Positions 8,369 through 26,743 of a stretch of DNA of 64,000 bases are shown here, piece by piece. Position numbers and translations under genes: made by a program. The DNA is taken from the NCBI GenBank assembly GCA_021513715.1, contig CP084167.1, positions 1,216,001 through 1,280,000 of the forward strand. The letters are read 5' to 3'. Source of the stretch: Candidatus Heimdallarchaeum endolithica (lineage in GTDB: Archaea; Asgardarchaeota; Heimdallarchaeia; Heimdallarchaeales; Heimdallarchaeaceae). Below the pieces are notes generated by a model, which did not search any database, was not told the origin of the DNA, and saw nothing but the letters and a program-made list of their open reading frames with translations. Each line of letters begins with the position of its first letter. Position 1 is the stretch's first letter.

Positions 8369-10324
8369 CTACTTTCTATTTTCTAACTTTTTTGACCAAG
8401 TATCTTTTAGTGTTATAATGCGATTGAAAACTAAATTGTCTTTTGTTGTATCTTTGTCAATAATGAAATAACCTAATCTCTCGAATTGGTACCTTGATCC
8501 TACTTCTGCTTTTGCGAGGAATGACTCCACAAAACCTTTTACTATTTTTAATGAATCAGGGTTTATGTAATCAGTGAAATCTTTTCCTTCCTCTACATCT
8601 AAAGGATTTTCTTTTAAGAATAATCTATCGTATAACCTTATTTCTGCAGGTATAGCATTCTTCTCAGATATCCAATGAATACTTACTTTTACTTCTGGGT
8701 CGTCTTTAGTAGAACAGGTTTTTGAATCTGGATCATAAGAACAGTGTAACTCTTTGATTTTTCCTGTTTTTTCATCTTTAACTACTTTCTCGCATTTGAT
8801 TGTGTAACTATACTTCAACTTAACTTTTCTTCCTGGTGCGAGTCTGTAGAAATCTTCAGGAGGTTTTTCCTTGAAGTCACTATTATCGATATAGATTACT
8901 TTACTGAAAGTTATTACTCTTTTACCCATATCTTTGTTTCGAGTATGATTATTCACTTCTATTTTTTCTTCTTTGTCATCTGGATAATTGGTTATTATTA
9001 CTTTCAAGGGCTCAATTACACTCATAACTCTGGGGCAGCGTTCTTCTAGATCTTCCCTTATATAATGTTCCAATATTGAAAAATCAACTATTCTTTCTCT
9101 TTTAGATACACCTATACCATCAGTGAACTTTTTTATTGCTTCAGGAGTAACTCCTCGTCTTCTGAAAGCAGCAATTGTAGGCATGCGAGGGTCATCCCAA
9201 CCATCCACTATTCCTTCACTTACCAAGTGTAGCAGTTTTCTTTTACTCATCACCGTATAAGAAAGATTTAATCTAGCGAACTCTATTTGCTGTGGATGAA
9301 AGATAGGATTTCCTTCCTCATCTTCTAGTTGTTCTAGAAACCAATCATACAGCTCTCTATGTACCTCAAATTCTAAGGTACAAATAGAGTGCGTTATTCC
9401 TTCAATAGAGTCTTCTAAACCATGAGCCCAATCATATAATGGATATATACACCATTTGTCTCCAGTATTATGGTGTGTTCTATGTAATATTCTGTAAATT
9501 ACAGGATCCCTCATTAAGAGATTAGGGTGGGACATATCAATTTTAGCTCGTAAGACTTTTTCTCCATCAACGAACTCTCCATTCTTCATTCTTTCAAATA
9601 AAGCCAGATTTTCTTCTATGCTCCTATTTCTATACGGGCTTTCTTTTCCTAGTTCTGTTACTGTTCCTCTTAATTTTCTTATTTCTTCAACACTCAAATC
9701 GTCAACATATGCTTTTCCTTTTTTAATTAATTGAACTGCATATTCATATAATCTATCAAAATAGTCAGAAGCAAAGAAGAGTCTATCTTCCCAATCAGCT
9801 CCTAGCCATTTAACATCTTCAATAATTGATTTTACATATTCTTCCTCTTCAGTAATGGGGTTAGTGTCATCAAACCTGAGGTTGAATTTACCATTATACT
9901 CTTTTGCTATCCCATAATTGAGGTTAACAGAAACAGCATGTCCAATATGTAGATACCCATTTGGTTCTGGAGGAAAACGAGTATGAACTCTTCCATTATA
10001 TTTTCCTGTTTTCATATCTTCGTTTATTATTTTACGAATAAAATCAATTTCTTTTGTTTCTTTTACTTCTTCTTTCTCTTCCGAAAGTAGCTCAGGGTAT
10101 TTTCGTTGAATAAGTTGCTTAGTTTCATCTAGAGGTTGTGCATTGAGTTTTTCTATCATATCAAATACAATTTCTTTTAATTTTTTTGCACGACCTCGAA
10201 GCTCAGGATGGTTTGACATTAATTTACCCATCACAGCGCTAAGTTTCGCGTTGCCAAATTCTAGAATATTCTCTAGTACATATTTTTCAATGATGTCTTC
10301 TTCGGAATTCATTGTGACAAACAA
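8369..10324 (-). CDS. glnS: Glutaminyl-tRNA synthetase with archaeal GluRS-like N-terminal helical domain
   Basis: [51 protein letters not shown] (Cys of the Gln pocket), [26 protein letters not shown]. Confidence 0.93.
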
Positions 10325-26558: not shown

Positions 26559-26633
26559 TGGTAGTCCCCAGGAGATTTGAACTCCTGCCCCCGGATCCAG
26601 AGTCCGGGATCCTTGCCACTAGACTAGGGGACT
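26559..26633 (-). tRNA. tRNA-Gln (anticodon CTG), encoded CCA
   Basis: Cloverleaf: acceptor AGTCCCC/GGGGACT, anticodon arm CCGGA-CT-CTG-GA-TCCGG, T arm AGGAG-TTCAAAT-CTCCT, ACCA end. Confidence 0.97.
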
Positions 26634-26668
26634 CTAAATTACAAGCGGTAACAAAGGATTGGAAAAGA

Positions 26669-26743
26669 TGGTAGTCCCCAGGAGATTTGAACTCCTGCCA
26701 CCGGATTCAAAGTCCGGAATCCTTGCCGCTAGACTAGGGGACT
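26669..26743 (-). tRNA. tRNA-Gln (anticodon TTG), encoded CCA
   Basis: Near-identical cloverleaf with anticodon arm CCGGA-CT-TTG-AA-TCCGG. Confidence 0.97.

Follow-up and report, generated by a model that had tools for sequence, protein, structure and literature searches.

The window analysed here, a 64-kb stretch of contig CP084167.1 of Candidatus Heimdallarchaeum endolithica, encodes on its minus strand a conserved glutaminyl-tRNA synthetase (GlnRS), most probably imported from bacteria, that bears a grafted N-terminal domain of the archaeal glutamyl-tRNA synthetase (GluRS). Reviews up to 2022 describe all known archaea as lacking GlnRS, and ascribe this lack to the incompatibility of archaeal tRNA-Gln (A1:U72, A73) with the bacterial and eukaryotic enzymes (PMC9499178, PMC8762117). 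A tRNA-identity barrier to the transfer of GlnRS into archaea was proposed by Tumbula et al. (2000), as cited in PMC9499178, and one preprint notes in passing that GlnRS adjoins cox genes in Hodarchaeales and Kariarchaeaceae (10.1101/2024.07.04.601786). No description of the chimeric architecture, or of the tRNA discriminator pattern reported below, was found in the literature searched; the adjacency of glnS and tRNA-Gln genes and the division between G73 and A73 according to the form of GlnRS are new here.

Judged by its sequence, the protein is a true GlnRS by family, with intact catalytic and glutamine-selecting residues. The whole protein scores 706.8 bits against the TIGR00440 glnS equivalog (cut-off 425.8) and 398 bits against the archaeal gltX model, which is under the cut-off of that model (401.75). 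Three Pfam GlnRS/GluRS domains, all on the minus strand, together span residues 113-623: the class I catalytic domain (residues 113-413, positions 9086..9988, PF00749, E 2.2e-104) and two anticodon-binding domains, namely the proximal beta-barrel (residues 430-531, positions 8732..9037, PF03950, E 5.1e-29) and the distal beta-barrel (residues 549-623, positions 8456..8680, PF20974, E 4.9e-23). The class I signatures are intact, with HIGH at residues 126-129 and VMSKR at 358-362 (the KMSKS motif, VMSKRKL in the sequence), and both sets of columns are invariant or nearly so in the alignment. Alignment onto the E. coli chain places R116, Y297, C315 and F319 at the glutamine-selecting positions R30, Y211, C229 and F233, whose equivalents are invariant in 162 sequences (55 with the N-domain, 13 of a bare form described below and 94 bacterial). 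The AlphaFold (AF2) model of the whole protein has a predicted local distance difference test score (pLDDT) of 92, with a confident GlnRS core and strands that agree with both beta-barrels. A preliminary description of this DNA had recognized E. coli-type GlnRS from about residue 90 onward, and the TIGR00440 score and the presence of all the motifs it quoted bear this out. The enzyme is thus expected to be catalytically active and specific for glutamine.

The N-terminal domain (residues 5-82, positions 10079..10312, minus strand) is of the archaeal GluRS N-terminal type that is also named "YqeY". When residues 1-100 are scanned alone, only archaeal GluRS models are matched, and at their N-termini: NF003169 with E 8.7e-17 over model positions 4-91, and TIGR00463 with E 3.8e-10 over model positions 2-85. 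An exhaustive search with residues 5-96 against 1.84 billion representatives returned 130 matches with identities of 26-43% and a best E of 1e-9, all of which proved on inspection to be archaeal-type GluRS N-termini or fragments thereof. GlnRS N-domains and GluRS N-termini can be aligned almost without gaps (55 sequences) and have in common, with no indels, the motif K[YF]ALxNA..G.A..G.V.G.....PELR..AK ... VN.L ... PELL. In the 55-sequence N-domain alignment, N15 is invariant and A16, G20, A22, N57 and P73 are each conserved in at least 90%. Profile and alignment thus establish homology between the N-domain and the N-termini of archaeal GluRS, as the preliminary description had supposed for the first 85 or so residues. 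It is predicted by AF2 to form a five-helix bundle (pLDDT ~90).

Between the N-domain and the core lies an acidic linker (residues 83-93, positions 10046..10078, minus strand) that is predicted to be disordered, with pLDDT <50 at residues 83-90, and that differs in length and sequence among homologues. Directly after the N-domain and linker, all full-length N-domain-bearing Heimdall homologues have DFIRxIINED, which is the starting point of bacterial GlnRS. Because the junction coincides with this start, the N-domain is, by alignment, a clean N-terminal addition to a complete bacterial-type enzyme. Homologue searches, including the 130 representative N-domain matches, found no bacterial GlnRS carrying the same N-domain. 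A locus labelled "Bacillota" with a tblastn match that seemed to cover the N-domain was rejected, as it encodes an ordinary GlnRS of 575 amino acids. In two metagenomic proteins (798 and 491 amino acids), stretches similar to the GluRS N-terminal domain are repeated five or six times in tandem.

Further comparisons of the N-domain returned little signal. A Pfam scan of residues 1-100 alone matched no family, and PF02637 is absent among the best-matched families listed for the 55 N-domain members scanned at E <= 1. Comparison by hhalign of the N-domain profile with the C-terminal YqeY domains of bacterial GlnRS gave a probability of 3% and no signal, the comparison with the N-terminal domains of eukaryotic GlnRS likewise gave no signal, and Foldseek found no match for the N-domain in the PDB. 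In a structure scan of 48,161 chains made independently of Foldseek, the top 19 include three YqeY structures as well as the N-terminal domains of human and yeast GlnRS, at Z scores of 5.6-6.5 that are within the noise band for helical models. Since these Z scores are in the noise and the profile comparisons are empty, "YqeY-like" is kept as a literature label for the N-domain and is not a result of the present analysis.

The gene occupies an uninterrupted open reading frame (ORF) of 651 codons at positions 8369-10324. The mechanically assigned start of this ORF is a TTG at 10324, four codons upstream of an ATG at 10312; because homologues start with MNS or MKS, the ATG is probably the true start, which gives a glnS coding sequence of 647 codons (positions 8369..10312, minus strand, stop codon at 8369-8371). 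Residue numbers are counted throughout from the TTG, so that residue 5 is the Met encoded by the ATG. An A/T-rich, TATA-like stretch upstream of the gene also speaks for the ATG; the transcript leader is perhaps very short. The host is an archaeon, because a small-subunit ribosomal RNA gene matching the SSU_rRNA_archaea model with 1324 bits sits on the single 3.33-Mb contig that also holds glnS. Of the named relatives, those nearest to the protein belong to metagenome-assembled genomes of Candidatus Heimdallarchaeaceae, and the GC content near glnS (0.33) compares with ~0.31 for the whole window.

The distribution of the enzyme was surveyed in 400 genomes of the Asgard phylum, with families labelled f1 (that of the window), f3, f4, f5 and f7. 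GlnRS is present in only three families of one class, which is the class of the window. The N-domain form is found in 20 of the 30 f1 genomes and in 10 of the 12 f7 genomes, and the bare GlnRS of ~560 amino acids in 12 of the 22 f5 genomes; no GlnRS was found in the three other families of the same order or in any of the genomes sampled from the other Asgard classes. The fusion with the N-domain recurs in more than 40 protein clusters and in 30 genomes of two families, on contigs of up to 220 kb. Profile search shows that the host genome also encodes an archaeal-type GluRS above cut-off and adjacent gatD and gatE genes, so that gltX, gatD and gatE, named in the preliminary description as the genes to look for, are all present; GatB was not found in the host genome. 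Because GlnRS, GluRS, GatD and GatE all occur in the same genome, both routes to Gln-tRNA are encoded there. Having GlnRS has not caused the loss of the indirect route, since gatD is found in 78 and GluRS in 71 of the 83 genomes of the window's class. Most f7 genomes carry two full-length copies of gatD (~495-547 bits each), despite having GlnRS.

Identity between the core and the GlnRS of many bacterial phyla is 63-67%, against ~38-42% for the eukaryote-type GlnRS sampled. In comparisons of the core with solved structures, most bacterial GlnRS give 594-657 bits, that of Deinococcus radiodurans 533, the human and yeast enzymes 405-440 and archaeal GluRS 228. When archaeal GluRS is the sole outgroup, the N-domain clade is basal and stands outside a clade, supported at 100, of all bacterial and bare sequences. 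This placement was rejected as a long-branch effect because it vanishes once eukaryotic GlnRS (from Amoebozoa, plants and Anaeramoeba, retrieved via a giant-virus GlnRS query) is added. In the FastTree tree, the two Heimdall clades then fall within the bacteria, and the topology is (GluRS, (eukaryotes, bacteria)). Nesting in bacteria is recovered in three trees: FastTree, LG+G4 and LG+C20 with posterior mean site frequencies (PMSF). In the IQ-TREE LG+G4 tree, the N-domain clade (support 100/100) joins Ignavibacteriota and Planctomycetota sequences at 91/97, and the LG+C20 PMSF tree gives it the same placement at 97 in the Shimodaira–Hasegawa-like approximate likelihood-ratio test (SH-aLRT). 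The bare f5 clade groups apart, its neighbours being Proteobacteria/Thermodesulfobacteriota and a sequence labelled Odinarchaeota. Transfer of GlnRS from bacteria is consequently the favoured and best-supported reading, short of proof. Of the separate phylogenies proposed in the preliminary description, that of the core places it inside bacterial GlnRS with the eukaryotic outgroup, and that of the N-domain, with its 90 columns, resolves no donor. When a profile of the GlnRS N-domains is compared with GluRS, the sister family f5 scores best (80-88 bits), other archaea reach at most 79.6 bits and the window's own family f1 reaches 48. A Heimdallarchaeial donor is plausible on these scores, and the fusion is not recent.

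Val or Ile occupies the site of E. coli D235, which reads G2/G3 of the acceptor stem, in the N-domain clade, and Thr or Ser in the bare clade. An adaptation of the tRNA contact was considered for the Val and rejected, as the same residue occurs in Bacteroidota and in one Ignavibacteriales sequence among the nearest bacterial relatives of the N-domain clade. Because it is common to these relatives, the Val may well be inherited rather than adaptive.

The GlnRS of Plasmodium and Toxoplasma (PDB 4p2b) is of bacterial type (60% identity, 644 bits), and large viral contigs carry bacterial-type or eukaryote-type GlnRS. Some bacterial GlnRS are fused to the bacterial GluRS-type anticodon-binding domain PF19269 (1030-1140 amino acids), and others to PF04015 (~897 amino acids).

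The host genome has only two tRNA-Gln genes, both within the window at 26559-26743 and identified with ARAGORN. The presumed substrate, tRNA-Gln(UUG) (positions 26669..26743, minus strand), has A1:U72, G2:C71, U3:A70, A73 and A37, and tRNA-Gln(CUG) (positions 26559..26633, minus strand) has A1:U72, U3:A70, A73 and G37; CCA is encoded in both. In the window's genus, this pair lies 16.6 kb from glnS. Elsewhere the linkage is closer: in 14 of the 20 GlnRS-bearing f1 genomes, tRNA-Gln(UUG) follows glnS closely and in the same orientation, in most of them at a distance of 76-91 bp. In f7, an intron-bearing tRNA-Gln(UUG) is found ~100 bp downstream of glnS, and in f5 a UUG and CUG pair is convergent to the 3' end of glnS.

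The discriminator base follows the form of the enzyme. Counting distinct tRNA-Gln genes, the lineages with the N-domain enzyme have A73 in 19 of 20: 16 of 17 in f1, where the UUG isoacceptor has A37 and U3:A70, and 3 of 3 in f7, where it has A37 and A3:U70. All 14 tRNA-Gln genes adjoining the bare glnS of f5 combine G73 with A37, the latter also being a glutamine identity element in E. coli. Where GlnRS is absent (f3, f4 and one f5 genome), tRNA-Gln has A73, G37 and C3:G70. In E. coli, G73 and the pairs 1:72 and 3:70 are glutamine identity elements (PMC9976931). Because the bare enzyme occurs beside G73 tRNAs and the N-domain enzyme with A73 tRNAs, the pattern suggests that the grafted N-domain may raise tRNA affinity in cis and thereby take the place of G73, by analogy with a known bacterial case discussed below. 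It also fits two solutions to one incompatibility, in which either dedicated bacterial-like tRNAs would serve a bare enzyme or a tRNA-binding domain would be added to the enzyme for A73 tRNAs. A tentative generalization is that Heimdallarchaeia have adapted a foreign GlnRS to archaeal tRNA-Gln by two alternative means with GluRS and GatDE still present, namely a bare enzyme with a dedicated extra G73/A37 tRNA pair or an N-domain enzyme with A73 tRNAs.

Two observations concern the tRNA genes themselves. A closed f5 genome (G066) has three tRNA-Gln genes, of which a G73/A37 pair stands by glnS and an A73/G37 UUG gene (C1:2761946-2762018) lies 316 kb from glnS; these look like two parallel sets for two pathways. 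In relatives belonging to genera g5 and g3, a tRNA-like gene of 74-75 nt with a UUA anticodon lies between tRNA-Gln(UUG) and tRNA-Gln(CUG), downstream of glnS (L247:1321-1395(-), L249:1321-1395(-), L252:1271-1345(-), L245:1327-1400(+) and L035:1165-1239(-)). It has A73, a CCA encoded in the gene and A1:U72, which in L245 is replaced by an A1/A72 mismatch, and looks like an ochre-suppressor candidate derived from tRNA-Gln. This gene is absent from the genome of the window, and the glnS, gatD and gltX matches of the genomes that have it showed no in-frame TAA.

The explanation proposed here, which is considered reasonably probable, is that of a glutamine-specific GlnRS of bacterial descent, horizontally acquired, fused N-terminally to the helical domain of GluRS as an affinity enhancer, and charging A73 tRNA-Gln beside GatDE. 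A Heimdallarchaeial lineage would have gained a bacterial glnS by horizontal transfer, probably from an Ignavibacteriota/FCB-like (Fibrobacteres–Chlorobi–Bacteroidetes) donor. In that lineage, a copy of the ~80-residue helical domain that opens every archaeal GluRS would have been joined to the N-terminus of GlnRS. The chimera would then charge the archaeal-type tRNA-Gln of the host (A1:U72, A73) directly with glutamine, beside the retained route through GluRS and GatDE. The N-domain most likely would serve as a cis tRNA-affinity enhancer, like the C-terminal YqeY domain of Deinococcus GlnRS, and would compensate for the missing bacterial discriminator G73. The direction of transfer, the activity of the enzyme and the part played by the N-domain are inferences. 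One of the two readings offered in the preliminary description was a transferred bacterial GlnRS with a GluRS domain captured to handle archaeal tRNA-Gln; both structural halves of that proposal stand, as the core falls within bacteria in three trees and the N-domain is homologous to GluRS, and the transfer itself is favoured and unproven. The putative purpose of the capture gains indirect support from the tRNA discriminator pattern.

Several points weigh against this explanation. In the approximately unbiased (AU) test, a placement of the N-domain clade as sister to all bacterial GlnRS is not rejected (p 0.148), and neither is a single origin together with the bare form (p 0.37). No source of the N-domain stands out in its short phylogeny, and a YqeY-like fold has weak structural support, with Z scores inside the noise band. 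The discriminator pattern rests on approximately three lineages and thus on very few independent events. Finally, GatDE and GluRS are kept everywhere, so that a need for GlnRS is not demonstrable.

The first of these AU results bears on an ancestral or intermediate status of the enzyme, in which GlnRS would have arisen from an archaeal-type GluRS in the Heimdall/eukaryote stem, the N-domain would have been retained and bacterial GlnRS would descend from the archaeal form. Eukaryotes have no closer known relatives than Heimdallarchaeia (bioRxiv 10.1101/2024.07.04.601786), no extant GluRS is close to the N-domain (identity <=43%), and the basal position under a GluRS-only root would agree with such an origin. 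That position is lost, however, in the FastTree, LG+G4 and C20 mixture trees with eukaryotic GlnRS, and the constrained tree is 43 log-likelihood (lnL) units worse. The much higher identity of the core to bacterial than to eukaryote-type enzymes, the patchy distribution over three families of one class, and the lack of any profile relation between the N-domain and the eukaryotic GlnRS N-terminal domain all speak against it as well, and an ancestral status is improbable. The alternative suggestion of the preliminary description, that the lineage is informative on the origin of GlnRS, is accordingly not favoured, since basal placement appears only with the GluRS-only outgroup, even though the AU test tolerates it. 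The second AU result is relevant to a single acquisition, in which one bacterial glnS would have settled beside tRNA-Gln genes in the common ancestor of the three families and the N-domain would have been added or lost later. This is rather unlikely, though clearly less so than the ancestral scenario. The adjacency of glnS and tRNA-Gln genes in the N-domain families and the bare family alike, the tolerated monophyly of the two Heimdall clades and the absence of Asp at the E. coli D235 position from both are in its favour. Yet all trees put the two clades in different bacterial neighbourhoods with separating branches at 96-98 SH-aLRT, and three label changes are obtained in 200/200 bootstrap trees. 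The orientation of glnS relative to the tRNA genes is co-directional in one clade and convergent in the other, the adjacent tRNAs have A73 in one and G73 in the other, and no remnant of the N-domain was found within 1.5 kb of bare glnS genes.

It is also conceivable that the protein has a non-canonical role in vivo, as a relic, a regulator or a paralogue that, for example, charges a special tRNA only, with GluRS and GatDE making all Gln-tRNA. The retention of GluRS and GatDE in essentially all GlnRS-bearing genomes and the UUA-anticodon tRNA-like gene in the same cluster in relatives could be read this way. Against it stand catalytic and glutamine-selecting residues that are invariant in 55 sequences diverged to ~65% identity, a TIGR00440 score far over the cut-off, a confident AF2 model, and the absence of the UUA tRNA from the window's genome, and a role of this kind is very improbable. 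An assembly or binning artefact, in which a bacterial gene was mis-joined to an archaeal fragment, has nothing for it except the mixed ancestry of the two halves. The recurrence of the same fusion across clusters, genomes and two families, and the single contig that unites glnS with archaeal rRNA, GluRS and GatDE at a local GC content like that of the surroundings, reduce the probability of an artefact to almost nothing.

If a bacterial enzyme was indeed acquired and fitted with the N-domain, its establishment in an archaeal family (20 of 30 genomes in f1), together with the domain graft, provides a concrete and testable mechanism for crossing the tRNA barrier. The two-way fitting, if true, would be a natural experiment on crossing that barrier in the closest archaeal relatives of eukaryotes, and the enzyme/tRNA pairs may serve as orthogonal pairs. 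The system probably has no bearing on the origin of eukaryotic GlnRS.

Among known systems, the core is most similar to bacterial GlnRS, such as E. coli GlnS (1GTR/1QTQ/1O0B) and the Pseudomonas aeruginosa enzyme (5BNZ), with which residues 94-651 are collinear at 650-657 bits. HIGH, KMSKS, the equivalents of R30, Y211, C229 and F233 and both beta-barrels are common to them, and the same glutaminylation chemistry is expected. The Heimdall enzyme differs in its extra 90-residue N-terminal domain and linker and, relative to E. coli, in Val for Asp235, Asn at the equivalent of R200 and a 5-residue insertion near E. coli position 250. The tRNA-Gln of the host has A73 and U3:A70, in contrast to G73 and G3:C70 in the bacterial system. 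With the archaeal non-discriminating GluRS (Methanothermobacter thermautotrophicus, 3AII, PMC2978374), the enzyme has in common a homologous N-domain ahead of the catalytic domain and the same five-domain layout; this GluRS domain is the one named a YqeY domain in the structural literature (PMC2978374). The Heimdall core is nevertheless that of a GlnRS (228 bits versus ~650), with GlnRS-specific loops and a Cys in place of Arg at the 229 site, and its junction reads DFIR..., whereas GluRS has an LPxLP linker.

A likely functional precedent is D. radiodurans GlnRS (2HZ7, NF011291, PMC1865053), in which a GlnRS core has likewise been extended by a helical helper domain that stems from the indirect Gln-tRNA pathway. 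The YqeY domain of that enzyme raises the affinity for tRNA-Gln, in cis only (PMC1865053), and by analogy a role as cis affinity enhancer is likely common to the Heimdall appendage. The Deinococcus appendage is a C-terminal YqeY domain of 215 residues, whereas that of Heimdallarchaeum is N-terminal, has ~80 residues and is of the archaeal GluRS type. Of the 769 positions of the NF011291 model, 8-561 are matched and the C-terminal YqeY part (~562-769) is not, the protein ending at the GlnRS core. The NCBI pipeline names relatives of the protein "glutamine--tRNA ligase/YqeY domain fusion protein", and this name describes the wrong architecture, because the NF011291 match ends before the C-terminal domain.

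Eukaryotic GlnRS (yeast 3TL4/4H3S, human 4YE6, PMC3333875) also has an N-terminal helical tRNA-binding appendage, the first three helices of which weakly resemble the Heimdall N-domain (Z 5.6-6.3, in the noise band). That appendage, however, is PF04558/PF04557, of ~200 residues and without profile similarity, and the eukaryotic core (405-440 bits) belongs to a separate clade. The Heimdall enzyme would represent a third independent gain by GlnRS of a helper domain from the indirect pathway, after Deinococcus (C-terminal YqeY) and eukaryotes (N-terminal, GatB-like), and the three cases suggest that GlnRS generally needs a firmer hold on tRNA when it meets a new tRNA environment.

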